A stretch of 64,000 bases of DNA from an uncultured Armatimonadia bacterium (GTDB lineage Bacteria > Armatimonadota > Zipacnadia > CAVVLO01). Shown in pieces: positions 4,741 through 64,000 of the stretch. The position numbers were made by a program, and so were the translations under genes. The stretch is from NCBI GenBank assembly GCA_963749155.1, contig CAVVLO010000001.1:896001-960000 (forward strand), given 5' to 3'. Each line of letters starts with the position of its first letter. The stretch's first letter is position 1. A model generated the notes under the pieces. It was not told the origin of the DNA. It saw only the letters and a program-made list of their open reading frames with translations, and searched no databases.

Positions 4741-4882
4741 AAGATGTAACGCTTTACCGAATGTGACTACTTTGGAAACATTATTAACCCTTGTAGACCT
4801 GTAGTTTTCGTGGTAACGTTAATCAGACCTAGAGAAGTGAGGCTGTGTGGCAGGTTAATTCCAGGTCACTTGCCCTGAAGAG

Positions 4883-5551: not shown

Positions 5552-5577
5552 CAATCCGGCCTGGTCTCTCACCAAGC

Positions 5578-5611
5578 AAACAGCCTGGCCAACACTGGCC
5601 AGGCTGTTTTT
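5578..5611. terminator. Bidirectional terminator between convergent genes
   Basis: AAACAGCCTGGCCA-acac-TGGCCAGGCTGTTT then TT. Confidence 0.8.
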
Positions 5612-5636
5612 CTATCCCAGGTTTACAAGCTTGCTC

Positions 5637-6317: not shown

Positions 6318-6353
6318 CCTCGGCTCTCCCTGGTCCTCAAATATGTATCAGCT

Positions 6354-13348: not shown

Positions 13349-13366
13349 GAAGCGAGGTATACTGTA

Positions 13367-14131: not shown

Positions 14132-14154
14132 GTAACACCATCTCGAGCTAGTAT

Positions 14155-14190
14155 GAGCGTGACCTTAAAGGTCGCGCTCTTTGTTTTATT
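14155..14190 (+). terminator. Rho-independent terminator of the GOGAT operon
   Basis: GAGCGTGACCT-taa-AGGTCGCGCTC then TTTGTTTT. Confidence 0.75.
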
Positions 14191-14319
14191 GTGACATATT
14201 TTTATTCTGCCAGTACAAGGTTGTTGTGTTACCATACCTCTCGGTGTCACTGTCCTGGGCAGAACCGCCAGAGGCGTTAGCCTTTTCTGCCTTCATCCAG
14301 GGAAGGATCGCACTAGCAT

Positions 14320-23635: not shown

Positions 23636-23682
23636 GTGGCAGAGCAACTCCTTCCAGGCGTTGGCCGGGCCCTGGAGTTAGT

Positions 23683-26600
23683 GTGCCCAAAGCAGCGCTA
23701 AAAAACAGGTTCCGCCAGGCCGCAGCCTTCGCTCGAATCGAGCAGGAGCTTCTGAAGGGCGGCCAGGCCTCAGTGACGGGACTCTCGGGAGGCGCCAGAA
23801 GTCTTCTTCTGGCCACCCTGATAGAGTCTCGGCAGGAGGGACTTGTCGTCTTCACAGATACCCTCGAAGCTGCCGCCGACCTGCGCACTGACCTGATTGC
23901 CTTACTCGAGGCCGATACCTCCGATGTGCTCGTGCTCGTGCCCGCGGGACGCAGTCTATACAAACATTCCTCAACCGAGCCCGGCGCTAGCGCCGATCGC
24001 GCCGAGGCGCTGGCAACCAGCCTGGCGACCCCTCGACGGACCCTTATTGTCCCTGGCAGGGCGCTGCTTGAAAAACTGCCTCCCCCCTCGCGCCTGTCGT
24101 CGGTGACCTGGACTTTACGCCCAGGTGATGAACTGGCGCGCGAGGCGCTGACAGAGCGGCTCGAAGGAATGGGGTACCTGCGCGTTGATGCGGTTCACGA
24201 AGTGGGCGACTATTCGGTGCGCGGTTTTATCGTGGATGTTTATGTCCCAAGCCTCAATCATCCCCTTCGCATCGAGTATTTTGGTGATGAGCTGGAGTCT
24301 CTGCGCCTGTTCGATGTCACCTCACAGCGTTCGATAGGGCAACTGGAAGAAGCGCTTATCTGTCCGGCCGCGACCCTGACACTATTAGGTGCAGAACGCT
24401 TGCGTCTGGCGGCGGATATTAAACGACTGGCGCGCGAGCAGGCTGAGACACTGCGCCAGCAAAATCGCCGGGCCGAGGCGGCCAGGCTTGGCGAGTGGGC
24501 CGAAGCCGAAGCCGACCTCATAGAAGCTGGGCGGATGCTCTCAGGGCTGGAGCGATATACTCCGCTCTTGTTCAGCCAGCCTGCAAGCGTACTGGACTAT
24601 TGCACGAGCGCGGGCAAGCCTGTCTGCGTGATGGGCGAGGAACTTATCGCCGACGAGCTCCAAAGCTACTTTATTGATGCTAGTGCTGACTGGCAGGAGG
24701 CTTGCCTGCAGGGGCGCGCCCTCGGAGGTCTTACTTTCCAGTTGCAGGAACCAGAGCAAGCCCTCGGGAAGCTGACCAGCCAGGCGAGGTTGTTCCTGCA
24801 GGGGGTAGTCGGGACAAGCCAGGATTCGGTAACCGGTTTTCGGCTAGGCACCGCTGCAGCGCCCAGGTTCGCGGGCCAACTGGAGCTGTTCGCCCAGACA
24901 GTGACAGGCTGGCAGAAGGATGGCAAGACCGCTCTGGTGCTCACGCCCCATCCTGAGAAGCTGCGCGCCCTGCTTGCCGACCGGGAACTCGACGTGACCC
25001 TGGCCAGCGAACAGGAGCAACTCCGGCCTGGGCGCCTGTATGTCGGCAGACTCGATTTGGCTGAAGGGTTTTTCTGGGAGAAAGAAGGCCTTGCTGTCAT
25101 CACGGAGTCAGACCTGCTGGGCGCGCGCCGGGCGCCCGGACGCGAGCGCCGGGTGCGCGATGTCCCGAAGGCAGCTTCGCTAGCCGAGCTTAAGCCAGGC
25201 GACTACATCGTCCATATCAGCCACGGTATCGGCCTTTACAAAGGCCTGGTGAAGCGTGAGACCGACAGCGGCACGCGAGATTATCTGGAGATCGAATACA
25301 GCGATGGCGGCAAGCTCTTCGTCTCCGCTCAGCAGATGGACCGCGTGCAACGTTATGTAGGCGCGGGTTCGGAACCGCCCAAAGTGAATTCACTCGAGGA
25401 TGTACGCTGGATAGCCACCAAGCGCAGGGCGCGCAAGCAGGCTCTGGAGATAGCCGATGGCCTGGTGCGTCTATATGCCGAGCGCGAACGAGGCCGAAGG
25501 CTTTCCCTTTGCCGCCGATGATGCGATGCAACGCGAGCTCGAGGCGCGTTTCCCCTTTGTCGAGACAGATGGCCAGTTGAAAGCGGTCGATGGCGTCAAA
25601 CGCGATATGCAGAAGCCTTCTCCAATGGACCGGCTGGTCTGCGGAGATGTCGGTTTCGGAAAAACCGAGGTCGCAGTGAGGGCGGCTTTCAAAGCGGTGC
25701 TCTCAAATAAGCAGGTTGCAATTCTGGTGCCGACCACCGTTCTGGCCGAGCAGCATTACAACACTTTTCGCGATCGGCTGGCAGGCTTCCCGGCGCGAGT
25801 CGAAGTTATGAGTCGGTTCCGTAGTCGCGCCCAGCAGCAGGCGGTCTTGCGCGGACTGAAGGCTGGCGCCGTAGATATCGTTATCGGCACTCACAGGCTG
25901 CTTTCCAAGGACATTGAGTTCAAGTCGCTGGGCTTGCTTATAATTGATGAGGAACATCGTTTTGGCGTGTTGCACAAAGAACGGCTGAAGGAACTTCAAT
26001 CAGGGGTTGACGTGCTTACCTTGACGGCAACGCCAATTCCGCGCACGATGCAGCAGGCTTTATCGGGACTGGTAAACCTTTCGACTATCGCGGATGCGCC
26101 TGCGGGCAGGCTTTCGGTCGAGACTTTCGTCGAGTATGAGACTGACGAGGTCATAAAAGACGCTCTTCAGCAGGAACTGGACCGGGGCGGCCAGGTGTAC
26201 CTGGTCACCAACACGGTGCGCAGCGCGCCTTTCCTGGCTGAGCGGATCCGCAAGCTGGCGCCCACCGCTCGAGTGGCTGTGGGGCACGGCCAACTGGCCG
26301 AGTCCGAGCTGGAAGAAGTAATGTTCGAATTCTACCAGGGCGAATATGATGTGCTCGTTTGTACTACAATTATCGAAAGCGGACTCGACATCCCCAATGC
26401 CAACACGCTGCTAGTCCATAATGCCGATCATTTTGGCCTGGCGCAGCTCTACCAGCTTCGTGGCCGAGTGGGACGCTCTACCAGGCAGGCCAGAGCCTTT
26501 TTCCTGGTGACACAGCCCAAACAGCTTAAGCACACCGCGGCTCAGCGGCTCGAGGCCATCCAGGAACACACCCAGCTTGGCTCGGGATTGAACCTGGCGA

Positions 26601-27244
26601 TGAGAGATTTGGAGATACGTGGAGCGGGTAATCTGCTCGGTCCGCAGCAACACGGTTTCATAAACTCTGTCGGTCTAGAGCTATATCTTGATATGATAAA
26701 GGAAGCCGTCGACCAGTTGCGCACTGGAAAGGCGACCGCGCCGGTAAAACGCGCCGTGCTCGAACTGGAGCTGGACGCGCTGATTCCGGAGGATTACGTG
26801 CAAGCACCGGCGCAGCGACTCGATCTGTATCGGCAGATTTCGGGTTCCGAATCGGTGCATGATCTGCAAGAACTTGGCAAGGCTTTGCGCGACCGATATG
26901 GACCCCTGCCAGAGCAGGCAAAACGGTTGCTTGAAGTGGCCATATTTACGCTCAAGGCTGCCCTGGTTGGCATCGAGGCCGTCCGCCGCACGACGACGGG
27001 CGCTGTCTCAGAGCTGGCTCTCAGGGCTAATCTGAAGCCGAAAGTGGTCAAACTGATGAATCAGATCTATATGGTGCGCTCGTCCGACCTCAGGGCAAGC
27101 GTCACTTTCCAGCCGCATAGAATCGAGGTAGCCACACTCCTTTCACAGGAGGGGCTGTTCCGAGTGCTGGTCGATATCGTAGGCGCGATGCAGCATGAGG
27201 ACTTCAAGCGGCTTACAAGTGGAGGGAAGGCGCCACGTGCCTGA
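23683..27244 (+). CDS. mfd: Transcription-repair coupling factor; apparent indel near 25490
   Basis: UvrB-like [64 protein letters not shown]. Confidence 0.95.
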
Positions 27245-28526
27245 AATCGTAGGACTTAGCTTTAACGAAGGGGGCAAGATCTATTTCTTCGACCCCCAGG
27301 GTGAGCAATATGCCGAGGGCGAGGCTGTACTGGCCGAGACCGCTCGCGGGCTGGAGCTTGGCTGGGTAACAAGTGCCAATGCCGAAGTGGACGAATCAAC
27401 CATTGTCGCCCCTCTTAAGCCCATTGTGCGTAAAGCGGCTGAGGGCGATCTGAAGAAGAAAGAAGAACTGCAGCGCAAGGCGCGAGAGGCGCTCAAGACT
27501 TGCGAGCAGCATATCGCTCATCATAAGCTGCCGATGAAGCTGATAGAAGCCGAATACACCTTCGATGGGAAGCGTATCATCTTCCATTTTGCTTCTGAGG
27601 GACGGGTCGACTTCCGCGAGCTGGTGAAAGACCTGGCGCGCGAGTTCAAGAAGCGTATCGAACTCCACCAGGTCGGCGTGCGCGACGAAGCCAAGCTGTA
27701 TGGCGGGCTTGGAGTCTGTGGGCGAGAGCTCTGCTGCAGCCGCTTCCTGCCCGATTTCTGTCCCGTCGCTATCAAGATGGCCAAAGCCCAGGAGCTGTCA
27801 CTCAACCCGGCAAAAATTTCCGGTATGTGTGGCCGTCTGATGTGCTGCCTGCGCTACGAATATGAGCTTTACGAGGAAGGCCAGAAACGCCTGCCCAAGT
27901 ATGGTGTGGTTATTGATACGCCCTTTGGCGAGGGACGGGTCATTGGGCGTGACTTGCCGAGTCTTACCGTCACAGTAGATGTAGGCGAAAAGGGCAAGCA
28001 ACGGATGACTATCGCCCAACTCGAGGGCTTGCCTTGCGAGGAATGCGAGGCCACCGAGGCCATGTGCAGCAAATGCCCCAGAAGGACCGACAGGCCCGGG
28101 GAGCCAAGCGAGCCGCAAGAAGAGCCTCGCCCGACCGAGGCACCCCCTGTTGGAGAGTTCGATCAGCCGGCGCCAAGGTCTCAAGGTGATGATCGTGAAG
28201 CACCTTCAAAGCCGGAAGGCCCCGAAGTCAGCCAGGGCAGAACCAGGCGTCCCAGGCCCCGCCCAGAGCAGGGAAAACCTGGCGGCCAGGGGCAGTCCAG
28301 GAGCGGTCAGCAAGGCCGGCCTTCGGGCAGGCCCAGACCAGAATCCCCCCCGAGCGCCAAACCTGACGCTCCCCAAAGCAGAGGGTCAGGCGAGGGGCAA
28401 AACAAACCGCCCTCTGAGGGCGATGCCCGCAGGCAATCCGCAAGACGCCGGGGAGGACGTGGCCGCAAGCCCGGTGGCGGCGGGGGAGGCCAATCGGGAG
28501 GCGCTCCAGGCCCATCGGCTGACTAG
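27237..28526 (+). CDS. PSP1/YaaT (RicT) family protein with long low-complexity C-tail
   Basis: KIYFFDP, GRVDFRELVKDLA, RIEL.Q.GVRDEA...GG.G.CGRELCC, LNP.KISG.CGRLMCCL.YE; GTG start at 27237. Confidence 0.92.
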   Translation: MPEIVGLSFNEGGKIYFFDPQGEQYAEGEAVLAETARGLELGWVTSANAEVDESTIVAPLKPIVRKAAEGDLKKKEELQRKAREALKTCEQHIAHHKLPMKLIEAEYTFDGKRIIFHFASEGRVDFRELVKDLAREFKKRIELHQVGVRDEAKLYGGLGVCGRELCCSRFLPDFCPVAIKMAKAQELSLNPAKISGMCGRLMCCLRYEYELYEEGQKRLPKYGVVIDTPFGEGRVIGRDLPSLTVTVDVGEKGKQRMTIAQLEGLPCEECEATEAMCSKCPRRTDRPGEPSEPQEEPRPTEAPPVGEFDQPAPRSQGDDREAPSKPEGPEVSQGRTRRPRPRPEQGKPGGQGQSRSGQQGRPSGRPRPESPPSAKPDAPQSRGSGEGQNKPPSEGDARRQSARRRGGRGRKPGGGGGGQSGGAPGPSAD

Positions 28527-28591
28527 CGGTCAAGCGGGACAACTTTTCGAGTCAGTTTTTTGATATGACCAGAGATTGGAGAGGGTGTTTA

Positions 28592-30554
28592 GTGCAGCAG
28601 TCCAGATACGTGACAACGCCTATCTATTATGTAAACGACAAGCCCCATATCGGGCATTCGTATACCACTATCGCCGCCGATGTGCTGGCGCGTTATTGGC
28701 GCTTCCGCGGCTACCCTACATATTTCCTGACTGGGACCGACGAACACGGCCTCAAAATCCAGGAGACCGCCGAGGCGCAGGGCGTCACCCCGCGCGAGTG
28801 GTGCGACCGGCTGGTCGTCCATTTCCAGGATATGTGGAAAGAGCTTCACATCGAATACGATGGCTTCATCCGCACTACCGATACGGCGCATGAGGAGACC
28901 GTGCAGAAGCTCTTCACGCGGTATCTGGAGCAGGGCGATCTCTATCTGGGCAGCTACGAGGGCTGGTATTGCAAGTTCTGCGAAACGTATTTCACGCCTG
29001 CCGAGATAGCCGATGGCCTGTGCCCCAACGCCGAATGTCGGCGCGAAGTGCGCCAGGTGGCGGAGCCTGCTTATTTCTTCCGGACTTCCGAGTATGCTGA
29101 CCGGCTGGTCGAGTACATCGAGGCGAATCCCGAGTTCATAATGCCTGAATCGCGTCGTAACGAGGTGCTGAGCTTCATCCGCGGCGGGCTGAGGGACAAC
29201 TGTGTCTCGCGCGCTTCGGTTGCCTGGGGCGTCCCGGTGCCAAATGACCCCAGCCAGGTTGTCTATGTCTGGTTTGACGCGCTCATCAATTATCTCTCCG
29301 CCCTGGGCTATCCCGACGGAGAGCTGTGCCAGCAGTTCTGGCCAGCGACCGTGCAGCTTATGGCGAAGGACATCCTGACCCGCTTCCACGCGACACTCTG
29401 GCCGGCGATGCTGATGGCGGCTGACCTGCCTCTGCCGCGCACCTTGTTCGCACACGGCTTCTGGACCGCCGAGGGCGAGAAGATGAGCAAGACGAAGGGC
29501 AACTTCGTCTCGCCAATTGATGTCGCTACCGAACTGGCTGACGCTACCGGCGCGGACCGAGACATCACCATAGACGCCATCAGGTATTTTGTGCTGCGCG
29601 AGGTTACTTTCGGCGCGGATGCAGACTTCTCGAAGACCCAACTGGAAGCCCGCTACAATGCTGAACTGTGCAACGACCTGGGCAATCTGCTCAACCGTAC
29701 GGTCAGTATGACGACAAAGTTCTTGGGCGGGAAATTGCCTGGCCCTGAAGCCGTTGATGCCGAAATCCAGGCCGAACTCGCTCCTCTGCTCGAAGCCGTC
29801 GACCAGGCCTATGAAAAGGTAGACTTCAATGGGGCGCTCGAAGCCATAATGGGGTTCACAGGGCGCCTGAACAAATACATCGACACGCAGGAGCCCTGGC
29901 GTCTCAACCGGGAGGGCAGGCAGACGCGAACTGGAGCGCGCTCTCGGCACGACTTTACGCGCCACGGCAATTGCGGCAGCGTTGATTTATCCCTTTATGC
30001 CCGTCGCCTCGCAGGAGATACTCCGTCAGCTTGACTGGGCCACCCCAATCCGCGAGTTGAGCTTTGAGCAACTGGGGCAGCTTGCGACCGCCCCCGTGGG
30101 GCAGACCGTTACTGAGGCAAAGCCTGTCTTCCCAAGGCTCGAGAAGGAAGGCAAAACTCCAAGACTTGAGAAGCCAAAGCCCGAAGCCAAACCAGCTCCT
30201 AAAGAGGCAGCTCCGGTAGCGCCAGTTGGGCTTATTACCATACAGGATTTCCAGCAGGTGCAACTGAGGACGGCAAAGGTCCTCTCGGCCGAGAGAGTCG
30301 AAGGCGCCGACAAGCTGCTGAAGCTTCAGATAGAGGTGGGCGAGCCTGAGCCGCGCCAACTGGTGGCGGGTATCGCCCAGCATTATGCTCCCGAGGCCCT
30401 GGTAGGTCGCACCATCATCATCGTCGCAAACCTCGAGCCAGCAACCATCCGCGGGGTTACCTCGCAGGGGATGCTGCTTGCCGCCTCAAGTGGCGATTCG
30501 GTGAAGCTTTTGATGGTGGATGGCGACTTGCCGCCGGGCAGCAAAATCAGGTAG
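28592..30554 (+). CDS. metG: Methionyl-tRNA synthetase with C-terminal tRNA-binding domain; apparent indel near 29925
   Basis: YVTTPIYYVN..PHIGH, GTDEHG, YVWFDAL, KMSK; C-terminal ADKLL...RQLVAGI...ANL.P..IRG..SQGMLLAA. Confidence 0.95.
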
Positions 30555-51896: not shown

Positions 51897-51926
51897 TTGA
51901 CAGCCCCCTTTGGGTGCTGGGATAAT
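51897..51926 (+). promoter_or_regulatory. Sigma70-type promoter of tRNA-Gln
   Basis: TTGACA-N18-GATAAT ending 14 nt before the tRNA. Confidence 0.6.
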
Positions 51927-51939
51927 CTGCACGACATGT

Positions 51940-52014
51940 TGGGGCGTGGCCAAGTTGGCAAGGCACAGGACTTTGGATCCTGTATCGCAGGTTCGAGTCC
52001 TGCCGCCCCAGCCA
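51940..52014 (+). tRNA. tRNA-Gln(TTG), integration target
   Basis: TGGGGCG/CGCCCCA acceptor, CAGGA-ctTTGga-TCCTG, GCAGG-TTCGAGT-CCTGC, GCCA. Confidence 0.96.
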
Positions 52015-52016
52015 TC
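52007..52016 (+). repeat. Putative attL core CCCAGCCATC
   Basis: Overlaps the tRNA-Gln CCA end; repeated at 58098. Confidence 0.65.
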
Positions 52017-53583
52017 CTTGACGTTTTGCGCAACACGGTGCTCATCCGAGCCGGCATAGAGCTCGAACAGCACCGTTTTGTCTTTGCGGATGGTTATCCG
52101 CTTCACTAGAGCATCGACTAGCAGACCTCTCTCCTCTGCAGTGCAAAAGTCGAACAGTTCGGGCAACTGACCAAACAGCTCTTTTGCCTCTTCCAGGTTG
52201 CATGGCCTTGGTGCAGCCTCGCGAAGCCTGAGCTGCGCATCGGCCAGTTCATGCTCGAGCTGCCTGAGGTTGCTCTCAAGGTTGGTCAGGCGTCCCTGAA
52301 GTCCGCTGCTGGTGAGTCCCTTCTCGATCGCCTGGTATACCTTCTCAAGCTTGTCGGCTACGTCGGTACGTCTACGCCGGAGTTTGTCTGCCTCTTGCCT
52401 TAGCGAGGCGGTCGATGCCTCCAACTCGTCGATCGATTCCTGGGCTGCCCTGGCCAGGGCCTCCTCGTCAGTCGACAGCTCTCCGCACGACCTTCATGAA
52501 GAGCTTGTCGAGCACCTCCCCATTGATGCGTCTGACATCGCACTCGATGCCCAGGTAGCGGCCGATGCGATAGCATTCATAGTAGGCTGTGAAGTTCTTC
52601 TTTCGGTTGGGGTGCCTGGTGGCCTTGGGTGACATCCTGCAACCGCAGTGGTCGCAGTAGACTTTACCAGCGAGCAGGAAGTCGTAGTCTACGTTCATCT
52701 CCGGCCGGTGGGAATGCTCTGCGAACAAGTTCTGGGCCAGTTCGAAGGTCTCGGGATCGATGAGGGCCGGGTGTGAGCCTTCGCAACGCAGGCCCGAGTA
52801 GTTGAGTTCGCCCAGGTAGATTCGATTCTGGAGAATGTAGGAGAGCTTCTGCTTGGACCAGTATCTGAGCGCAGGTCTGTCGGGATTAGTCTTCGTGCTC
52901 CAGTTACTTGGCTTGATCCCAAGCGCTACTAGCTTGTCTCGAGTAGCTGCCAGGCTACGCGTGCGCAGATACTCCTGGAAGATAAGCTTGAGGGTAGGCG
53001 CTTCGTTCTCGTCGGGCACCAGCCCGCTATTGCACACGTTGTATCCAAAGGGCGGCATGCCACCCGGCCACCTGCCTGCTCTCGCAAGAGCTATCATCTT
53101 GTCCCGGGTGCGCTCAGCTGTCATCTCACGCTCTAGCTCGGCAAAGGTCATGGCAATGTTGCGCATCGCCTTGCCCATCGGATGCGAGGTGTCGAACTGG
53201 TCTTTAACCGCAACGAAGCTGACGCCATACTGCTCGAACCGGGCATCGAGCTGGACGAAGTCGGCAAGCGACCGGGTGATGCGATCGAGCTTGTAAGTCA
53301 CCACCACGTCGAAGACGCCCTCCTCGGCATCGAGCAGCAAGCGCTGCAGGCCAGGGCGCCGGGTATTTTTGCCCGAGAAGCCTGCGTCCTCGTAGAAGCC
53401 TTGCAGTTCCCATTCAGGATGACTTGCGGTGATGAAGGCAGTTATGATGTCGCGCTGGGACTCGAGCGTGTTGTACTCGCCCCTGGTCTGGTCTTCGGTG
53501 GAGCAGCGCAGATAGCCCACGGCGCGACCCCTATGCACCTGTTCCTTGATTTTCATTTGCTTTTTTACTCGTCTACTGGACAT
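52007..53583 (-). CDS. Large serine recombinase B; apparent indel near 52480; frame stays open through the att site
   Basis: GYLRCSTEDQ (catalytic Ser), SGK...RPGL, YKLDRITRS, PPFGY, LQNRIYLG, HPALID, Zn ribbon LLAGKVYCDHCG...YYEC, coiled coil in ORF 50337..52424. Confidence 0.9.
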
Positions 53584-55920
53584 CGTCAGCTCTCTCCTCC
53601 TGGGTCACTTCTGGGTTCGCAGCCGGCAGGCCGATTTCCTGCACGCGCTCCAAGGCCGTCTTAAAGCTGTCCGCACCGAGGGCCTTCCAGAGCCGGTGTA
53701 GTGCAGAGTTCACGGCGACCTGACTAACCTTCCTGCGTTTGGCTATCTCGGGCTGGCTCAGCCCCTGTCGCAGCAGTTCCAGACACTGAAGCTGCAATTT
53801 GGTCGGCTTGCCGACTCCAAGTTGTTCTGCCAGGTCGCCCTCTGCAAGCTGACGACAAGCGCGCACTAGCAGTTCGATTGAGGGTTCCTCTGGACTTAGC
53901 AAGCCAAGGTCGAGAGCCCTTGCAACTAGATGACCCACCTGATGGACTTTGAGCCTGGTGCTGGCCCTTTGTCTTCTGCCAGCCGCAGTAGCCTCGGGAT
54001 AACCGTTGGCCAGGCCCTCCTGGCTGACAGTGAGCCCGGCGGCCAGGGCGCGAAGGGAAATCAGTTCTTTTTGGGTAAGTAGAGTCGGCTGCTGCTTTGG
54101 CTTGCTGCACGCGGCCTTCGAGGGGCAGCAAGTCGCGCCACTGAGCGATCAGGGAAGCAGCAAGCACCGCAGCCTCCCGCTCATTCTCGGCACCCATCGC
54201 GTCAATCGCCCGGTTTCGAAGAGTATTAACCGTGGAGCTAGACACCTGGAATCGCTTGCGAATGGCTTTGTCGTTCAGGCCATCGGCTACCAGCGCCAGA
54301 TAAGCCAGTTGGCGTCGGGTGATCCTGGCGCAGAATTTACCCTTTCGGATCCTGCGCCACTGGAACCCGATCGGTAGCATAAATCGCTGCTCGGGCAGGT
54401 ATTTAAAGAGGACCCTGATACTCACTGCGCCTTGGGCAAGACCGACTTCGACCCGCTCGATCAGCGCTTCGCAGAGGGCCCGTCTGCGCTCTGGGGAGGC
54501 CTCTTCCCAAAGCCGGGGCAGATCGGCAAGCAGGCCTTCAACCTTCGCGAAGTCCTCTTCAAGAGTCCGGCGACTATCTCCCACTGCCATAAGCTCACTC
54601 AGTCGGCGCTCAAGCTTGAAAGCCTGCTCATTTACCTGTCTATCGATAGACTGAAGCAATTGTTCGCTGAGCGCGCCGTCAGTGTATTGCGCGGCAGCGG
54701 CATCTCGATGCTTCTGGAGTTTCGCCAGTTCATCTCGAACACGAGTCTCTTCGTTCCCGTTTGCATATTCTTTCTTAAACAAGCCAAGCGCAACGCGCCT
54801 GGCCTCCTCGAGCACCTCGGGCTTCGACGCATATTCCAATAGCAGGTCTCTGACACGCTGCTCGAGGAATTCGCCCCTCACGTAAGGTCTGGTCTCACAG
54901 TCTATATCGAGCTTTGGTCCTCTGCACCGGTAGCCATAATTCTTGCCCAGCCTGTGCACGAGCACCAGGCGACTTTTGCACTCGGCACACCAGGTCAGCC
55001 TGCCAAGCAAAGCCTCTGGACAACCGTGCGTTCGTCCAGAAAAGCGTCGTCTGGACCGGAGCAATTCCTGTATGCGAAAGAAAGTATTCGGGTCGACCAG
55101 CCGTTCATCCCAGTGAGCACCCTGTATATACTTTCCCTCGTGCGCGATCAGTCCAGCGTGCAGTGGATTCGTCAAGACCTTACTCACGGTATTTGCTCGC
55201 CAATAAGGTCCACCTTTCGGAGCGGGGATCCCCCTTGCCCGGATTTCTTTCGCAACCGCCTCCAGTCCGGAGCTTTGCTCATAGAGTTGGAAGATTAGTT
55301 TTACGACATCGGCCTCAGCCGGTTCTGCCACAATGCCTGGTCTTGCTCTACTTGGTGTCATTAGGATCACCTACCGGTCCAGTGTTGCGCCAGCCATAGC
55401 CTGGCCTTCCTGTGGGATAGCCGTCTTCTCGTCGCTGGCGCATGGCCGACTTCACATTCTCGGCTCCGATATTGGCAAACAATTCTGCGGCTAGCGCCAT
55501 GAAATGGGCTGCGAATTTGCCCATCGGGGTAGTCGTATCGAGACTGTCACTTACAGAAACCAGTGCTACACCAGACTCCTCTACACATTCATGAAAGAAA
55601 TCGAGCCAGACCCGAGCATTGCGCCCCAATCTGTCGAGACGCCAGAAGGCTACGACGTCGATTTCTCTGGCTTTCACAGCAGCCACCAGCGCAGCCAGTG
55701 CAGGCCTTAACCTGCGGGTCTGACCCGGCTTGTAGCCATACCGGCCCGATATCCCCTCATCGGCAAACACCTGCAAGGTATAGCCATCAACTCTATACAG
55801 CCGATCGAGGTGCTGCCGGCAGGCGGTCTCCTGGGACTCGAGCGAATAGCCGGACTGCACCTGCTCCTCGGTCGAGACCCTTTTGTATAGTCCTACTCTG
55901 GGTCTTGTAAGGGGTTTCAT
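53573..55920 (-). CDS. Large serine recombinase A with three putative C-terminal LuxR-type HTH domains; apparent indels near 55355 and 54105
   Basis: LYKRVSTEEQ, RPAL, WRLDRLGRN, PGYGW, LTNP..AG, LLGRLTWCAEC...YRC; then ITRRQLAYLALVADGL..., LTQKELISLRALAAGL... and PTKLQLQCLELLRQGLSQPEIA; stitched from three ORFs. Confidence 0.78.
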
Positions 55921-56013
55921 TTCGTTGCTCCTTTACTGAGAATTTCTGCCCTTTATGGGCTTTCAAAACGTGTATCAGGTACTCCATGCCATCGACGTTA
56001 TGCATTTCAATAT

Positions 56014-56042
56014 ATTATACATGAGTCGTACTGGTTTATAAA
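56014..56042 (-). promoter_or_regulatory. Putative sigma70 promoter of the recombinase operon
   Basis: Minus strand TTTATA-N17-TATAAT in an AT-rich tract about 95 nt upstream of ATG 55920. Confidence 0.5.
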
Positions 56043-56074
56043 GTACTGCACTTCTTATTAAACGTATTCTAAAC

Positions 56075-56260
56075 TCAGCACGAAGAATTACATAACTTAT
56101 CCTCTGCTGAAGCCTGCTCCGGTGCGTCTTGATCGGACTCTTGCCCCGCGTTCGCTTTGGGATTTGTTATCGCCTCGTAGACCATAGTTGCGAGCAGCTG
56201 GGCGAAGGCATGCCTGCTCTGCTCAGGATCATCCGACTGTTGATGACTGGGTTGCTGCAT
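56075..56260 (-). CDS. Small hypothetical protein (61 aa)
   Basis: AAGGGGGTGA RBS; central helix-like RHAFAQLLATMVYEAI; upstream of the recombinases. Confidence 0.5.
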   Translation of the reverse strand: MQQPSHQQSDDPEQSRHAFAQLLATMVYEAITNPKANAGQESDQDAPEQASAEDKLCNSSC

Positions 56261-56411
56261 TTGGGCTCACCCCCTTCGCTGCCTGGCTTTGCTTTTGGCG
56301 CTGCTTTGCCCGGCGCAGCACCTCGAGTACCAGCGCATAACGCCGTACGATATCCGGGGTGTGGACGAGTATCAGACTTGCTGTGTATCGACCTTCTCTT
56401 TCCATCTGCAT
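56229..56411 (-). CDS. Small basic hypothetical protein (60 aa)
   Basis: ATG with upstream GGGGA; RRYALVLEVLRRAKQRQK helix; overlaps the next ORF. Confidence 0.45.
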   Translation of the reverse strand: MQMEREGRYTASLILVHTPDIVRRYALVLEVLRRAKQRQKQSQAAKGVSPNAATQSSTVG

Positions 56412-56495
56412 AATGTTTTCGTCCCCAGGCTTGACTTTCTATTTCTACTGTATATGGTTAGTTGTGAGGCGACGGCGGGCTAGATTTTGGGCTAG

Positions 56496-57713
56496 ATGAT
56501 GGAGGAGATAGTCGTGAGTATGCCAGTTCAACTGTGGGCGCCTAAGACGCCTACGAATCCGATCTTCCCAAGGGCACAGGCAGACTTGGAGGCAGCTTTC
56601 CGTTTGTGGCAGGGCGAGATACGAATCTATTTCCACGATTTTTGCGATCAGACCAGGCGTTTCGTAACCGAAAAGACCGTGCAGGATGTAGGGCTCCCCC
56701 AGGCACTCGTTCCGGGCCAGGAATTGCGGATCTTGGACGTGGTGCACATTGATGAGCAGCTAGGTGTATGGCCGCCAGTTGACATGGGGCCGGATGTTCC
56801 CGAACTGAACCGAGTCTCAGCGTCTCTGTACCAGCAATGGGCTGACTCTCGGCTACTCATTTTGAGAGGGAGAAAGAGTTTTCGTTGGAGGCTGCCTGCA
56901 GTGAGGAACGGAGAGCTGGCTTGGGAGGATTTCGATATCTCGATGCCGCCCGGACCCGTTGCGGACCTGATAGCAGAGGAGGGAGACGAAGGTCTCATCA
57001 AGATCCGTTTTGGTTCCGGACTGGCGGGACGCCCAACGGTTAGCCTCGAGCTCGAACAACTCGAGCAGCACGGGAACCTGCGATGGGAAGAAGACCATGA
57101 ATTATCTGAGGAATGGGATGTTGTGGTGTCGCAAGATGCCCCCGACATACCCGCGATATACCTAACGCACAGATGGCCCAGCCCCTTCGATGTTATGTTC
57201 CCCTTTGTGGGACTCGACATACTGCATAGCTGGGGCACTATGCAAATAGCACTTGAGAACATAAGAGAAGGTCGCACTGAACTGGCACTTAAAGCCGCCT
57301 GTGAGGTTGTAGAGTCGCGGACAGCCGAGGTAGGTGTAGAGTTATGCTACGCCTGGTTCTTGCCGAAGCTCTCGTTAAGTCCGCAGGAGGCGCTCATGGC
57401 ACTAGAAAACCGCTTTGGGCTGGTATTCTCTACACTGGACAAGGTTTTCCAATCGGCTGAAGCAATGCGGCTGTTGTCCACACCCATTCCAGTCAGAAGG
57501 GTGGTAGGCTGGGACGGTTACTTATGGTGGCGTTTGTATGAGGACCTGCAATCAGGCATGGGATTCGGGGTTTGTCGTCGCTGCGGGCAACCGCTCATCG
57601 GTGTCACGAGCGCAAGGCGATTCTGCTCAAGAGCAGAAAACGAGGAGTGCTACCTTGCCCGACGGGCTGCTTCGCAGAGGGAGCGCTATAAGAGAACGAG
57701 GAACCACACTTAA
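56496..57713 (+). CDS. Hypothetical protein with C-terminal CGNR-like zinc finger
   Basis: 405-aa ORF ending CRRCGQPL......RRFCS......C..ARRAASQRERYKR. Confidence 0.7.
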   Translation: MMEEIVVSMPVQLWAPKTPTNPIFPRAQADLEAAFRLWQGEIRIYFHDFCDQTRRFVTEKTVQDVGLPQALVPGQELRILDVVHIDEQLGVWPPVDMGPDVPELNRVSASLYQQWADSRLLILRGRKSFRWRLPAVRNGELAWEDFDISMPPGPVADLIAEEGDEGLIKIRFGSGLAGRPTVSLELEQLEQHGNLRWEEDHELSEEWDVVVSQDAPDIPAIYLTHRWPSPFDVMFPFVGLDILHSWGTMQIALENIREGRTELALKAACEVVESRTAEVGVELCYAWFLPKLSLSPQEALMALENRFGLVFSTLDKVFQSAEAMRLLSTPIPVRRVVGWDGYLWWRLYEDLQSGMGFGVCRRCGQPLIGVTSARRFCSRAENEECYLARRAASQRERYKRTRNHT

Positions 57714-58026
57714 CAGTTTGCGACAGCGCACCGGCGCTACCCCATTGTGGGGGTAGCCTGCAACCTGGCTTGAGGAGAACTCCCCCTTCCTATCTCTGAG
57801 CTAGCAAGGCGCTCTACAGCGCCGTTTACAGCGAGCAGGACACTGCCGTGTTGTATCCTACTTGATATCGCAAGGCTCCATGTACCGGGCGTTTTCAAGT
57901 CCTGCATCACCATCACCAACCTGAGTGTGGCATCGGTAGAAAACGCGACAACGAAAACTGCGTTTTCTAAGCTGGTGGGGCTTGAAAGCTCCTCGGCCGC
58001 TCCCGAAGGCCGGGTTCGGTCTTCAG

Positions 58027-58107
58027 TTGGGGCGTCCTGGGCCAGCAGCGATCGCTGACTTCGCTAGCAAAGTGGCGCTGCTTCGAATCGCACTGCTCCC
58101 AGCCATC
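58027..58107 (+). other. Degenerate tRNA-like sequence containing the putative attR core
   Basis: Begins TTGGGGCGT like tRNA-Gln; has TTCGAATC and CCCAGCCA at near-tRNA spacing; D and anticodon arms not recognisable. Confidence 0.55.
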
Positions 58108-58428
58108 GTGATGCAATACCTGGCGTAGCAGCCATAATGGCCTCCTCCATGTCCGCCTGGCGGATCGCTGGCGATCAGTCGGTCTCTGGATCCGGCCGCC
58201 CTCTTAGCTGCCCTGGCAGGATTTACGGCTGGCATAATGCTCACCTGTTGATGTCACAGCTGCCAGTCAAGGGGCTCCGGGGGGCAGGCGACCTGGGCAC
58301 CCGGACACTGAGGCCACGGGGGAGCTGTCTCGTTATCAGCAGGTATGCACAGCCCTGCAACGAAACCAGCATTAGGACGACAGCCAGAACGTGTGCGACT
58401 TAAGGCGCACCGGGGAGGCCATCGGGTC

Positions 58429-60732
58429 GTGGCAAGGAGACGTCTGGGCACTCAACCAAACCCCGCCAACCCCAAGAACTGGCTAACGGGCGCGAGCAAG
58501 ACCATCGTGCTGTTGATGGTCTTCCTGGTGCCGCTTGCCATCTGGCCGGGCACGGCGAACGCCAACGCCATCAAGGACCTGCTCTTCGGCCTCGGCTCGA
58601 TCGCGCTTGCAGTCCTCCTGACGGTCCGCTTGATGCGCGGGGAGCGGCTCAGGCTGGGACGTTCGCCCCTGTTCCTGCCCCTTGCCTGCATGCTCGCCTG
58701 GGATGTCGTCTCGGGGCTGCTGTCAGGCTATCTGTACGCCAGTCTCACTGCCCTCGGCCACCTCGCCGGTTACGCGCTGCTCTATATCGCGGTCGTTGAT
58801 CTGGCGGCCGAGAGAGGGCAACTGGGCCGGCTGCTGGCAGTGGTGATGAGCGCGTCACTGTTGACCTGCGTCTACGGGTTGCTCCAGCACTGGGGCATCG
58901 ACTGGATTGAGTGGTACCCGAGGGAACTACGCCTGCTCTCCTCCTTCGGTAATCCCACCTTCTTTGCGGCCTGGCTGGTACTGTTGCTTCCACTGGCGGT
59001 GGTGTTGCACGTGCAGGCGGAGACGAGGGCAGGGCGGCTCGCCGCCGGCACGCTGGCCCTGCTGATGTATGTCTGCCTGCTCTTCACCTACACGCGGGCG
59101 GCGTGGCTTGGGCTGGCGCTGGGGCTCGTGGTTACTGGGCTTCTGCTCAGCCTGAAGCGAGCAACCACGGAAGAAACCGGGAAGGCGTGGTACCTGAGGA
59201 TCGGCTGGCTGGCTTTCGCCTTCGCGGTGGCGACCCTTTGGACACTCGGCCACAGTCCCGTGTCGATGTCCTCACGACTTGCCTCTTCGTTCCAGACGAA
59301 CGAAGCCTCGAACGTGCAGCGCCTTGGTATCTGGCATGGGGCGCTTGCGATGTTCAAGGCCCATCCCGTCACGGGCGCGGGCCTTGGCACCTTCGAGATC
59401 CACTTCCCCGAGTTCGAGTCGCCCGAGTTCTACTCGACCGGCGCCGCGACGATGGTGGATCACGCCCACAACGAGTTCCTGGAGACCGCGGCCGAGACGG
59501 GCCTCATCGGGCTGGGGCTGCTCCTCTGGCTTGCAGTTGCCTGCGTCGTGACGGCGGTGAGGGCGGCTCGCCTGGCCGAGGCCCGCTGGCGCTACCTTGC
59601 CAGCGGGGCGCTTGGCGGGCTTGTGGCGTTCATGGTGCAGAACCTGGCAGGCGTGACGCTAAGGTGGGTGTTCGGCGGCCTGTTCTTCTGGTTGCTGCTC
59701 GCGCTAGTTACGGTGGCAGAACAGCAGAGCCGGAGTAACCGCAGCGAAGCTCCTGGCACCTCAGTTATCACAGCCAGAGGGAACGCCTGGCCGGCCAGCC
59801 GGCTGGCAGCAGCGTCGGTAGTGATAGCCCTGGCCGCAGTCCTCGGCAGCGTAGCGGTGGTGCGCGCCTTCGCTGCTGGCTACCACCTGAAGCAGGGAAG
59901 ACTACGCCAACGAACAGAGCGTGTGGGAGCTTGCCGGGACGCAGCTCACCGAGGCCCTCAGGCTGGATCCGTACTCGCTGGACGCCTACTACCAGCTGGG
60001 CCACGTGCTCAACATGACCGGCGATTATGAGGGGGCGCTCTCAGCATACCAGTCGCTTGGCCGCCTGGCGCCGAACTACGGGCGCCTGCACTTCAACCTG
60101 GGAGTCGTCTACTCGAACCTGGGCGATACCGCGCAGGCTGTGGCTGAGTATAGGCGGGCCGTTGCGCTCGAGGACTCGCCCAGCGCTCACCTGGCGCTTG
60201 CCGAAGGTCTCATGGCCGAGGGGCAGGGCGAGGAGGCGCTCGAAGAGGCAGGCCTGGCGATCGCCAAGCTCGACAAGCAAGGTCCGGCCCCGGCGCTGAT
60301 CCTGGGGACGCCTATCTGCGCCGGGGCAAGCTCAGATATGCCGAGAAGCAATACGCGGGAGCTGAACAGGACTACCGCAAGTGTCTGGAGCTGACACCAG
60401 AGAGCAAGCTGGCCCGGTTCTACCTGGGCAACCTGTACCGAGCCCAGCGGCGATCCGCCGAGGCCCTTGCCCAGTACCAGAAGGCGCTGGAACTGGACCC
60501 CACTGACGCGCGAGTCCTCACGAACCTGGGCGCTGTGTACATCGACGAGGGCAAGTGGTCGGAGGCCGAGGTGCAGCTCCTAAAGGCCCTCAAGCTCTCC
60601 CCAAACGATGAAAGGGCGCGTTACAACCTGGCCCTCGTCTATCAGAAACAGGGCCTCGTCGCCAAGGCTCAAGCAGAACTGGACAAGCTGGGGCGCCCGG
60701 AGCTCTTGGATCAGCCGGATGGGCCTTCGTAA
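58429..60732 (+). CDS. O-antigen ligase (Wzy_C)-like membrane protein with C-terminal TPRs; apparent indels near 59905 and 60300
   Basis: YGLLQ, SSFGNP..FA, TYTRAAWLG, R..IW, HP.TG.G.G.F, HAHNE.L...AETG..G; TPR repeats follow in shifted frames; GTG start after GGGGAGG. Confidence 0.85.
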
Positions 60733-60844
60733 CGACCTTTGCACGAGTTCGAGTAGTCGACTCACGCCTGCCGCTCCCTTCTCCTCGCACTCACATCTAA
60801 TACTTCCAGGATCTGCCATCGCCAGGCTAGTGGTACAACCGGGG

Positions 60845-60872
60845 TTGACACCTCAGCGGACCGGTCTATAAT
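60845..60872 (+). promoter_or_regulatory. Consensus sigma70 promoter
   Basis: TTGACA-N16-TATAAT. Confidence 0.7.
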
Positions 60873-60975
60873 CGAAGGTAGTAACCTGTTGGTTTCCAGC
60901 ACACACTTTGAATTACGTTGTAAAGACGCTGTTTGTAAAAGTAGGTGTTTCGTCCCAACCAAGGAGGAAGCCCCG

Positions 60976-61714
60976 ATGTCAGGCTCGAGACGCTGGGCAG
61001 CGTTTGCCCTGGTCACAGTGCTCCTTACGGTGGTCACGCTCCTCGTTCTGTGGTACCCGGTCCTCGCCGACGGGCTGAAGGACGCCCAGCAGGCCTCCTG
61101 CATCGCCAACCTCAAGAAGATCATCCTCGCAACCAGAATGTACTGCAGCGACTGGGACGGCGCTTACCCCAACTCCGCCCTTACCGGCGCAAGCTACTCC
61201 GAGGCCTATGGCGGCGAGTTGCCGAAGAACATGCAGTTCGAGCGCCAGCGGAAGGGCTGGCCCGTGGCGCTGGCGCCTTACCTGGCCGACTCGCAGGTGC
61301 TGTGGTGTCCTGCTGACGGCGACCTCGCTGAGCACTGCCCCAGATGCCGAGGTGTCCTACTGGTTTCGCCACGCCCTGGACATCGGCCCTCTCTACCACT
61401 GGGGTCGGCCGCTCTCGGTGTCCGACATGGCCTTCGCCGATAGGCAGTTCCTCTTCTACGAGCATAGCGACTGGCACGGCGCGGGCGTTGGCCTTGGTAC
61501 TGGCATCGCCGGTGCCGGCGGCCACGGGCCCGACCTCGACGGCATCACCTCGGTGACGATCAACTGCGCCTTCGCGGACGGCCACGCGGCCGCGCTCGAG
61601 CTTGGGCCCGGCCTCTCTTCCGCAGGCAAGACCATCGATGCCAACTGGTTCACCTCGACCACTGACCCCTCCGACCCAACGGCCCTGTGGAACCCGAAGA
61701 TCAGCCTCGACTAG
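60976..61714 (+). CDS. Atypical prepilin-like/DUF1559-like protein; apparent indel near 61330
   Basis: AAGGAGG RBS; hydrophobic N-terminus then YPVLA.....AQQASCIANLKKI..A..MY..DWDG.YP, WCPAD, and C-terminal WH...INCAFADGH. Confidence 0.78.
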
Positions 61715-61771
61715 CGGGCGTTGGTAGACGCATCGAGGAAGGCGCGAATAGCCGTGCGGGGGTGGATGGCA

Positions 61772-63219
61772 ATGAGGAAGACAGCAGTTGGCCTGCTGGC
61801 ACTGAGTCTGACTATGATGCTGGTTGCCGGGATGAGCGCCGTTGCTGGCGCGGCACCCGAGGGGCTCCAGGAGGCCATCGCCTTGCTGGGGCAGGGGCGG
61901 TACCAAGAGGCCCAGGCGGCTTGCGAGGGGCAGTTCTTGCAAGGGCCGGCCGGGGAAGCGGCTGCCCGGCTCGTGCTTGCGGAGATCTGGGCCGCCCAGG
62001 GCCAGTTCGACAGCGCGGTAGAGCAGGCCTCGAAGGCACACGACCTCGCAAGCGGTCTGCAGCCGGCAGACGCGGCGCTTACCGCCCAGGCCGAAGCCGC
62101 GATGGCGCGGCATAGCGGCGATGCAGCAGACCTTCGACGACCGGGTCGCCAAGCTTCAGGCGGATGTGGCCGCAGGGGCTGGCACGCCCAAGGGCTGGCA
62201 GGCCCAGCTTGCGCTGGGTGACACCTTCACGCTCAACGGACACTTCGATGACGCCCTCGAACAGTATGGAACTCTCTCTCAGGCAACGCCAATCAGCATT
62301 TGGGCTGAGCGAGCCGCTGCCAGGATGGGGCTGGTCTACGACGCCACCGGCAAGCCTGACGAGGCGCGCCAGGCCTACCTGCTGTGCGGACTCGCTGGGC
62401 GGGCAGTTGCGCTACGAGGCAGTGGGCAAGGCCCAGGTTGCCCAGTATCAGGCGACCCTCGCCGCGAGCCCGGGCGACGACGAGGCGGCCGAGGTACGCT
62501 ACAAGATTGCCTGCATATACGCCCAGTACCTGATGTACGATCAGGCTATCGCGGAGCTGGTCGGCCTCATCGACACGTACCCCACCAGCAAGCCGGCCGC
62601 CAAGGGCCTGTCCCTGCTCACCACGCTCTTCATCCAGTCAGAGCGCCCCGACGAGGCGGTCGAGGTGCTGGTGCCACTGGTCGATGACCACTACGCGGAC
62701 GACTCAGCCGTGCTCGTGGGGTTGTGCGGGGTATACCGGCGCGCCGGTGGCACCACCGATGCGGAAAGCACAGCCAAGGGCGTGCTGAGAGACTACCCCG
62801 ACAGCGAGCAGGTCGCTGGGGCTGTCACCGAGTTGAAGGCGACCTACGAGGCCGCTGGGAACACCCCAGAGGCAACAGCAGGCAAGCTCAGAGCCTTACC
62901 GAGTGCCTACCCAGGCCCCGAGGTCGGCCCTGCAGTGGACGAGGGGATCGAGCAGCTCGCCTCAGCCTACTACTACCAGGGCACGGGCCTGGCCGCCGAG
63001 GACAAGTACGCCGAGGCCTTGGCTCTATTCGACAAGGCCCTCGCCCTGAGGCCGCCGGCCGACACTGGCCCCAAGGCGGCCTATCAGAAGGCCATCTGCT
63101 ACCACGCCCTGGGTGACGACCCCCAGGCCATCGCGGCCTTCAAGGCAGTGATCCAGGAGTACCCGGATGCTTATCTGGCCATCAGGGCTGCGAACTGGAT
63201 CGCGCGGCTCGGGGGCTAG
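61772..63219 (+). CDS. Secreted TPR-repeat protein (BamD/YbgF-like repeats); apparent indels near 62110 and 62395
   Basis: Signal peptide MRKTAVGLLALSL...AVAGA; repeats such as YDQAIAELVGLIDTYPTS and QAIAAFKAVIQEYPDA across three ORFs. Confidence 0.75.
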
Positions 63220-63234
63220 TGAGGCAGGAGCAAT

Positions 63235-64000
63235 ATGGAGCGGTCTACTCCTCCAGTCTGGATGGTTGCAGCAGTTGTGGTCGGCGTGCTGGTCGGCGCG
63301 GCGGCGCTCTGGCATCTGCTCGCAGGTCCGAGTGCGGGCGGGAGCCATTCCGCTGCATCGCTCTCTGATTCCACCGAGTCCGCCCCCTCTCCCGTGGCCC
63401 GGGGCCTGTACGACGAGGCCTATGCGGCAGCCGGGAAGGGGGATATACGAGGGCTGCGGAGCGCTTCTCGCAGCTGCTGGCGAAGTGTCCCAATGACCCG
63501 CTGGCCGATGATGCCCAGTACCAGCGCGGCATCTGCTTCTTCGCCCAGAGGGACTACGCCGATGCCGAGCGCGAGTTCCGGGAGCTGCAGCAGCGCTTCC
63601 CCGACAGCTACCTCAGCGAGAAGGCTGAGGACTGGATCGCCAAGGCCCGGGTCAAGCAGGGCGGCGGGACCACGAAGGTAACAGACGCTCCGGGTTCCGC
63701 TACGAGGCCTGTCGAAGAGGCCATCAGCGACGTCACGGGGGCAGGCGAGCGCAAGCTGGAGCCGCTCATCTACGAGGAGACGCGACCTGCGCCGCGGGTG
63801 GGGATGTGTGGGCCGGACGCACTGGCGATCATCTGCAAACAACTTGGAGAGGCAACTACGCCCGAAGAACTAGCCCGCCTCGCCAGCACCGACCGCACAG
63901 GCACCTCGCTGGCGGGTCTTGCGAAAGCGGCCAAGGCCAAGGGACTGGCGGCCGAGGGGCTCCAGGTGAACTACGAGTACCTGCGCAAGATGCCAAAGCC
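63235..64000 (+). CDS. Membrane-anchored TPR plus C39 cysteine peptidase domain protein, partial; apparent indel near 63445
   Basis: N-terminal TM; shifted frame gives LADDAQYQRGICFF..RDY..AEREF..LQQRFPDS then GMCGPDALAIICKQLG.....EELARLASTDRTGTSLAGLAKAAKAKGL.A.G. Confidence 0.78.

Follow-up and report, generated by a model that had tools for sequence, protein, structure and literature searches.

In this study, we found that a large serine recombinase encoded on the minus strand of a 64,000-nucleotide stretch of DNA from an uncultured Armatimonadia bacterium ends in three tandem LuxR/GerE-type helix-turn-helix (HTH) units, and that its catalytic domain is encoded by a gene of its own. The stretch (contig CAVVLO010000001.1, positions 896,001-960,000; hereafter the window, with all window coordinates relative to its position 1) carries this recombinase, A, at 55920-53573, where open reading frame (ORF) analysis spreads it over three reading frames. 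The catalytic head ORF is designated A-NTD, the ORF for body and tail A-CTD, and a second recombinase B. An earlier note on this DNA had described A as a recombinase apparently fused to three LuxR-type HTHs. That observation is confirmed and its reading as a fusion is supported, with one correction: in the window's lineage, the enzyme is split into a head gene and a body-plus-three-HTH gene. As a whole, the locus is explained best, in our cautious judgment, by a split, three-HTH-tailed recombinase A that stands with B at the edge of an element next to tRNA-Gln.

The HTH tail and its family

The three HTH peptides quoted in the earlier note were all located on the minus strand. HTH1 lies in a 548-aa frame (55370..53727) that also contains the Recombinase domain, the zinc (Zn) ribbon and a coiled-coil-like stretch, with the GerE match at residues 350-404; HTH2 and HTH3 make up a 191-aa frame (54148..53576). 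The frame shift that the note had placed near 54105 is right to within 25 nt, as it must fall between 54104 and about 54079, and a second change at 55348-55372, which accounts for the third frame, had gone unstated. The first ATG, GTG or TTG of the 191-aa frame is the GTG at 53938, within HTH2. With no start codon before it, HTH2-HTH3 cannot be a normal separate gene, and none of the relatives encodes these two units separately.

Each unit was scanned singly against the Pfam GerE model (PF00196; gathering cut-off 23.5 bits) in the window, in G333 (a genome from the window's phylum) and in C2 (a paralogous module of the window's own genome). HTH1 scored 29.6, 34.6 and 39.1 bits, respectively; HTH2 gave no match, 36.8 and 16.1 bits; and HTH3 gave 18.7, 19.5 and 16.9 bits. 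In the window, the GerE pattern claimed for all three segments is thus recovered by the hidden Markov model (HMM) for HTH1 but not for HTH2 or HTH3, while the orthologous HTH2 of G333 passes. When unit profiles cut from the family alignment (9 rows each) were compared by hhalign, the units aligned with one another in register over 58-61 columns (HTH1/HTH2 97.8%, HTH2/HTH3 95.7%, HTH1/HTH3 98.5%).

Structure prediction, which the note had suggested as a check, came out in its favor. For the intact G333 tail (259 aa), AlphaFold2 gave three four-helix units (residues 17-79, 98-152 and 192-247) at a mean predicted local distance difference test (pLDDT) of 86.6 and a predicted template modeling score (pTM) of 0.76, with a flexible linker behind HTH1 and a pair of helices that ties HTH2 to HTH3; the window's HTH2-HTH3 segment (172 aa; pLDDT 88.9, pTM 0.78) showed the same layout. 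The top rows of a Foldseek search with the tail model were LuxR-type DNA-binding domains, with E-values of 0.015 and worse that are modest because the HTH domain is small. By VIA-align, HTH2 of G333 superposed on VqmA (Z 13.5, root-mean-square deviation (rmsd) 0.8 Å, 63 residues) and GerE 1fse (Z 12.9, rmsd 1.4 Å, 67/67), and HTH2 of the window (tail residues 1-66) on TraR (Z 12.7, rmsd 0.9 Å, 65 residues) and GerE (Z 12.2, rmsd 1.2 Å, 66/66). Helical models can give such Z values by chance; here the rows were uniformly of one family and covered the whole domain. Since HTH2 filled these structural lists, the case for HTH1 and HTH3 is made by HMM scores, by profile comparison and by their helix pattern, which in the models is four-helical like that of HTH2. 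The three LuxR/GerE-type HTH units are real.

The remainder of A resembles known large serine recombinases. RVS, EG.SG and DRLGR of A-NTD align with those of relatives, and the Resolvase, Recombinase and Zn-ribbon matches exceed their cut-offs (Table 1). Between the Zn ribbon and the returning strands, A-CTD has about 140 residues of heptad-like sequence, a putative coiled coil, that align with those of relatives. A profile of the recombinase A family matched SPbeta integrase chains (9dxd_A and others; E 6.4e-9, profile positions 6-276), and this match extends across the heptad-like region to position 276. A phmmer search of the G333 CTD against PDB sequences gave 0 matches, and no NCBIfam family scored above its own cut-off for the recombinase A family. 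An Atlas search gave scores of just 0.84, no more than a lead.

Two relatives came out of a word-based search: P0002, of 593 aa, and P0003, of 779 aa, in which Resolvase, Recombinase, Zn ribbon and GerE are all present. When 1.84 billion representatives were then searched with a profile, 147 proteins were recovered at E <= 1e-30. Purpose-built HMMs of the three units were then applied to 152 proteins (P0002-P0153), among which 96 are full recombinases with a catalytic domain plus HTH units (27, 55, 13 and 1 with one, two, three and four units, respectively). A further 13 begin at the recombinase domain, 16 are N-terminal fragments, 5 form an intermediate class and 22 have no HTH unit. Body and tail stand contiguously in one ORF in G333 (594 aa), P0002 and P0004 (593 aa), P0005 (583 aa) and P0006 (617 aa), as the note had proposed for the body and its three HTHs. 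Its figure of about 780 aa fits the fully fused relatives P0003, P0007 and P0009 (779, 784 and 815 aa) but not the window's clade, in which the catalytic domain is a separate ORF. With 96 or more cluster representatives that combine a serine recombinase with between one and four HTHs, the fusion is a natural and uncharacterized family.

In a sample of 401 genomes from the window's phylum, just two, the window's own and G333, showed the entire three-HTH tail. Of the matches in these genomes, 150 were listed (201 more were unlisted), and among those listed at least 21 further open frames of 677-861 aa, from at least 16 genomes, match HTH1-HTH2. Twelve of these loci were examined: 11 have the Resolvase motif, recombinase domain and tail in one frame, and the twelfth, L038, looked like a head-less form but has no catalytic domain upstream and was set aside as a remnant. 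A scan of genome contigs gave just three weak matches, to HTH1 only, and a metagenome scan gave two genuine relatives among 60 loci. The sole matching plasmid record is AP024153.1, an Abditibacteriota plasmid whose copy is annotated as a hypothetical protein. All seven matching records of a phage collection match the recombinase and Zn-ribbon part alone, never the tail.

The head/body boundary

The catalytic domain is encoded by a separate, overlapping ORF in the window, C2, G333, L042 (the metagenome contig of P0002) and L043, a degraded relative; L042 and L043 share the window's boundary. The C2 module (C2:4676-9768) has three tandem ORFs that consist of the catalytic domain only and are joined by ATGA overlaps (4676-6344; 181, 180 and 195 aa), and a body ORF that begins MIEPRTRPGI at the recombinase domain and holds HTH1, HTH2 and HTH3 in one frame. 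In G333, a catalytic-domain ORF is followed by the intact 594-aa body-plus-tail ORF, which starts MMNNSSRRPGI; an extra, degenerate catalytic-domain ORF without the RVS motif is also present. P0004, P0005 and P0006 start at M..R.PGI, as the body ORFs do.

At all five boundaries, the body ATG lies 4-14 nt before the head stop, with a GGAGG-like site 4-8 nt upstream; the Shine-Dalgarno-like sequences are AGGTGAT, GGAAGGTGA, GGGAGGTGG, GAGGAGG and GGGAAGGGA. The overlaps measure 4, 8, 11, 14 and 14 nt (14 nt in the window), and the body is in the +1 frame relative to the head in four loci, the window included, and in the -1 frame in C2. Contigs from three independent metagenome sequencing runs (X1, with 7 differences in 399 nt, X2 and X7; these and X4 are contig sets of such runs aligned to the window) bridge 55340-55375 free of gaps. 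They show no indel at the 55348-55372 break. The split point falls in a variable loop between the conserved GYGWR and R.PGI segments, which would form two adjacent strands, as in integrase structures. No Rfam element was found at this junction.

A tree was built from 21 rows, namely the 7 split members, the 3 fused forms with three HTHs and 11 forms with two HTHs chosen from the uppermost matches, all others being omitted. In this tree, the split members group together in a single clade (support 100/98), and the fused three-HTH forms are its sister group (joint support 100/100). This indicates one ancestral split that was kept through divergence to about 35-50% identity. The head adjoining the body keeps RVS, EG.SG and DRLxR in all three loci aligned, and heads are 48-56% identical between loci, at least as conserved as the body. 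Pairwise dN/dS among the three C2 heads is 0.24-0.44. The first two of these, NTD1 and NTD2, may be inactive, because DRLSD replaces DRLxR and the PGYGWR end is absent.

On these sequence grounds, the break at 55348-55372 is a conserved gene boundary rather than an error, so that the window locus does not encode a protein of about 780 aa. Large serine recombinases are characterized by having all domains on one polypeptide, whereas here they are distributed over two overlapping ORFs in five loci. Literature listings and abstracts revealed neither a serine recombinase with a LuxR-type tail nor a natural split, and at that level of the literature a separate catalytic-head gene is an undescribed arrangement for these enzymes.

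Complex prediction weakly suggests that the two halves associate. With purpose-built alignments, the window NTD and CTD residues 1-185 scored 0.57 (runs 0.57, 0.63 and 0.51; best control 0.00), with at least 79% contact agreement between runs and a partner pLDDT of at least 74. Among reference pairs, 116 of 157 solved complexes pass this mark, as do 2 of 215 mismatched pairs; passing scores of 0.60 or below, the band of the window pair, were given by just 18 of the 157 solved complexes, whereas the two mismatches that passed both fall in it. Structures of full-length relatives have been solved, and the pass may therefore come from likeness to them.

Partner B, the element and competing explanations

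In all four split loci whose sequence continues downstream, A is followed by a homolog of B. At the three loci from genomes, B adjoins tRNA-Gln (window), tRNA-Glu (C2, where the intact 546-aa partner B' overlaps the tRNA with its end) and tRNA-Asn (G333). The island side of the junction is conserved as GTTGTCCAGAACGTTAAG, coding VVQNVK, with the tRNA end following after 2-5 nt at each of them. Over 51900-52018, an X4 contig matches the window letter for letter, and it diverges afterwards, which places the junction at 52018|52019. The B ORFs leave the element and enter the tRNA in antisense (window 52015-52040; L003, the C2 locus, 9680-9779; L028, the G333 locus, 6393-6490). In the window, the first frame of B spans 53583..52471 (minus strand); its frame remains open to 50337, opposite a pyruvate phosphate dikinase gene, so that B, as long as the element is integrated, meets no stop codon close by. 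The features of the locus are collected in Table 1.

Table 1. Coordinates of the recombinase module and adjoining features in the window
Feature	Position	Strand	Evidence
tRNA-Gln(ttg); element junction about 4 nt beyond the tRNA 3' end	51940..52014	+	junction 52018|52019
Recombinase B, canonical large serine recombinase, two frames through one extra base at 52486	52019..53583	-	Pfam Resolvase 136, Recombinase 59.5, Zn ribbon 40 bits
HTH3 and C-terminus; stop TAG 53573-53575 overlaps the ATG of B (ATGtccagTAG)	53573..53827	-	GerE 18.7 bits, under cut-off; hhalign
HTH2, diverged, without a Pfam match of its own	53864..54082	-	structural match to TraR and GerE
Interval that must contain the net +1 frame break between HTH1 and HTH2	54072..54104	-	between conserved LPLEGR end (54104) and LTQKEL start (about 54079)
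HTH1, LuxR/GerE type	54141..54338	-	GerE 29.6 bits, cut-off 23.5
A-CTD, first part: Recombinase domain, Zn ribbon, putative coiled coil, HTH1, LPLEGR linker	54105..55361	-	Pfam Recombinase (PF07508) 56.5 bits, cut-off 21.1; Zn_ribbon_recom (PF13408) 27.6 bits, cut-off 25.3; GerE 24.1 bits; alignments
Shine-Dalgarno-like AGGTGAT (55372-55366) and A-CTD ATG (55361-55359), both inside the A-NTD end	55359..55372	-	
A-NTD, 190-aa Resolvase catalytic domain and linker (RVSTEEQ, DRLGR, ...PGYGWR); stop TAG 55348-55350	55348..55920	-	Pfam Resolvase (PF00239) 103.4 bits, cut-off 23.3
Promoter-like site TTTATA-17-TATAAT upstream of A-NTD	56014..56042	-	consensus match alone: 3 sites against 2.7 expected

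Several other features lie near the modules. At 56496-57713 (plus strand) of the window, a 405-aa ORF with a Cys-rich C-terminus (CRRCGQP...C...C) is divergent from the recombinase operon; it matches no Pfam family, is without paralogs in its own genome and does not resemble the G333 neighbor. A multi-copy repeat adjoins both recombinase modules and starts at window position 57944: window 57944-60789 shares 98.4% identity with the beginning of contig C2 (C2:1-2843), and 60786-64000 shares 96.9% with sequence in inverted orientation at a distance of 19 kb (C1:975732-978946). Contig C4 holds, at about 4568-4900 and near the contig end, a fragment that is 50% identical to the C-terminal 112 residues of B and may be what is left of a third module; the 8.8 kb of sequence analyzed there showed no tRNA. 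In G333, transposase-like ORFs occur on both module flanks (5057-6241 and 12970-14352), and an HTH_31/HTH_3 repressor-like ORF (12521-12943) lies upstream of the module.

We propose that the two recombinases form a module at the edge of an element whose insertion point lies about 4 nt downstream of tRNA-Gln. A would be made from two overlapping, translationally coupled ORFs: a 190-aa head that ends after P.GYGWR, and a body of about 590 aa with its own Shine-Dalgarno sequence and ATG. The head and body polypeptides would rejoin non-covalently as an active subunit, and A and the canonical B would then act as a pair, much as CcrA and CcrB do, in integrating the element at tRNA 3' ends and excising it again. 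The HTH tail may add DNA contacts at accessory sites or operators, or cover the surface for a directionality factor; in short, extra DNA contacts, self-regulation or directional control are its candidate roles. The functions put forward in the note, namely autoregulation, binding of accessory arm sites and directionality, are likewise no more than candidates. The domains, their fold, the family, the gene boundary, the partner B and the association with tRNA genes are what these analyses establish.

Several points weigh against this proposal, which draws on sequence and predicted structures. HTH2 of the window lacks a Pfam match, and HTH3 is under the GerE cut-off in all three loci; the AlphaFold2 alignments had 10 rows each, and the VIA-align lists matched HTH2 alone. 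The complex score falls in the weak band. Searches in the window, C2 and G333 found neither the right end of the element nor att sites, and 51900-58100 has no convincing repeats or candidate HTH binding-site motif. A direct repeat of the tRNA 3' half was likewise absent from the three loci, and the loose-end contig continuations of the runs were found nowhere in the genome. Positions 53874-54110 lie outside run coverage, so the 54080 break was judged by comparison, and HTH2-HTH3 are left without a start codon. Copies of the module are often damaged (A-CTD in C2, B in G333, and L043, which is truncated and deleted), and the window copy could therefore be a decaying relic.

If it is, the break near 54080, and perhaps that at 52486, would be a real mutation, A would lack HTH2-HTH3 and the module would be immobile. 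We consider this unlikely, although it is the strongest of the alternatives. It agrees with the missing start codon of the HTH2-HTH3 frame, with the differing places at which other copies are damaged, and with HTH2 of the window, which is the most diverged. The run contigs leave 53874-54014 uncovered, X1 alone reaching 54111, and X1 has unlike sequence in place of 53851-54111. Against it stands the pattern of breaks in the assembly. The break between HTH1 and HTH2 is net +1 in the gene direction, that is, one extra base, and is absent from the relatives C2, G333, P0002-P0007 and P0009. The extra base at 52486 in B is missing from contigs of X1, X2 and X4, and the X4 contig has only 1 mismatch in 465 nt. 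The window also has three extra C relative to the 98.4% identical C2 copy, and one of these, at 59905, shortens a Wzy_C/TPR gene to 561 aa (682 aa in C2). A-CTD of C2 is broken too, net +1, at another place than in the window. All five unexpected breaks in the assembly are net +1.

Breaks of this kind are also seen away from the module. The mfd gene (TRCF; 23476-27241, plus strand) lies in two overlapping frames with a net +1 near 25490, UvrB_inter and CarD_TRCF_RID falling in 23476-25518 and DEAD, Helicase_C and TRCF in 25454-27241, and is probably interrupted by a one-base assembly insertion. At 28523-30551 (plus strand), the methionyl-tRNA synthetase core (28523-30031) and tRNA_bind (29871-30551) are in different frames, a sign of two separate genes or of one more +1 break. 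Since +1 breaks like the one near 54080 also occur in mfd and two further genes, that break is probably an assembly insertion as well, though with appreciable doubt. If this break is real, the window tail is truncated after HTH1.

Unlikelier still, A-CTD may not be a recombinase subunit but a DNA-binding accessory or regulator of B, serving directionality or repression, with the free heads as modulators or decoys of B. The CTD does have its own start codon and five DNA-binding modules, and the extra heads are degenerate (NTD1 and NTD2 of C2, and the G333 copy without RVS). A passage of PMC12286644 further suggests that the "substantial C-terminal extensions" of some integrases may block the site of the recombination directionality factor (RDF). 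However, the NTD adjoining the CTD retains all aligned catalytic residues in the three loci and would be translationally coupled to it, fused sister forms exist, and the complex prediction is weakly positive.

The two remaining alternatives are both very improbable. One fused protein of about 780 aa, with both frame changes as sequencing or assembly indels, is suggested by relatives of 779-815 aa and by the one-base insertions that the assembly does hold, but the boundary is free of indels in contigs of three runs, recurs in five loci from different sources in +1 and -1 frames with a start codon and Shine-Dalgarno site, and defines a clade. Programmed ribosomal frameshifting that joins NTD and CTD into one polypeptide could be suspected from the Shine-Dalgarno-like sequences before the overlap, which also precede the frameshift sites of prfB and dnaX, but mixed shift directions (+1 in four loci, -1 in one), differing overlaps, unrelated junction sequences without a common slippery motif or an Rfam element, and an in-frame ATG at the homologous position in each CTD argue against it.

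The split, tailed recombinase acting with B also allows a more far-reaching conjecture, which we offer tentatively and would not expect to hold in full. A naturally split recombinase might rejoin on DNA, spare heads (three in tandem in C2) might swap in or poison it, and the three-HTH tail might read accessory DNA, so that A and B insert by various tRNA genes and control direction without a separate directionality factor.

Comparison with known systems

Serine integrases are leading tools for the insertion of large DNA, and their known architecture stops at the Zn ribbon and coiled coil. The window locus suggests that a sizeable family of such enzymes with additional LuxR-type modules exists in nature, and one clade of this family retains a separate catalytic gene. 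If the halves reassemble, they would offer a natural, working split site that is useful for inducible or modular recombinases, and would show how extra DNA-binding domains can be attached without blocking catalysis. The locus also suggests, in a little-studied phylum, a small type of tRNA-targeting element run by paired serine recombinases rather than a tyrosine integrase.

Recombinase A shares the Resolvase domain, the Recombinase domain, the Zn ribbon and probably the coiled-coil insert of this ribbon with the large serine recombinases SPbeta SprA/YokA, Bxb1, phiC31 and A118/LI. Unlike them, the A family adds one to four LuxR-type HTHs after the Zn ribbon, and in the window's clade the catalytic domain is a separate polypeptide. 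The closest parallel to the pairing of A with B is SCCmec, whose CcrA and CcrB are large serine recombinases too, encoded side by side where the integrated element ends. The best NCBIfam match of B' is CcrB (137 bits, cut-off 900), followed by CcrA (123 bits, cut-off 700), with A lower still; scores so far under the curated cut-offs indicate that these proteins are not CcrA/CcrB equivalogs. SCCmec targets rlmH, whereas the window-type module targets tRNA 3' ends, and the Ccr proteins have no HTH tail and are unsplit.

The HTH units share the four-helix fold of LuxR/GerE/NarL domains (PF00196) and match GerE 1fse, TraR, VqmA, RhlR and VraR at an rmsd of 0.8-1.4 Å. Unlike LuxR-type regulators, A has three tandem copies that end a recombinase, with HTH2 and HTH3 bridged by two helices into one confidently predicted unit, and no receiver or ligand domain. 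Small serine recombinases (resolvases and invertases), with a C-terminal HTH_7, and IS607 TnpA, whose HTH is N-terminal, combine, like A, a serine catalytic domain with a simple HTH, through which they recognize their sites. In the small recombinases and IS607, the HTH is the sole DNA-binding domain and is covalently attached, whereas the HTHs of A come on top of a recombinase domain and a Zn ribbon. Engineered zinc-finger, TALE and dCas9 recombinases are reported to join a serine catalytic domain to DNA-binding modules of foreign origin. These are man-made covalent fusions, whereas A would be a natural, non-covalent split at a conserved gene boundary.

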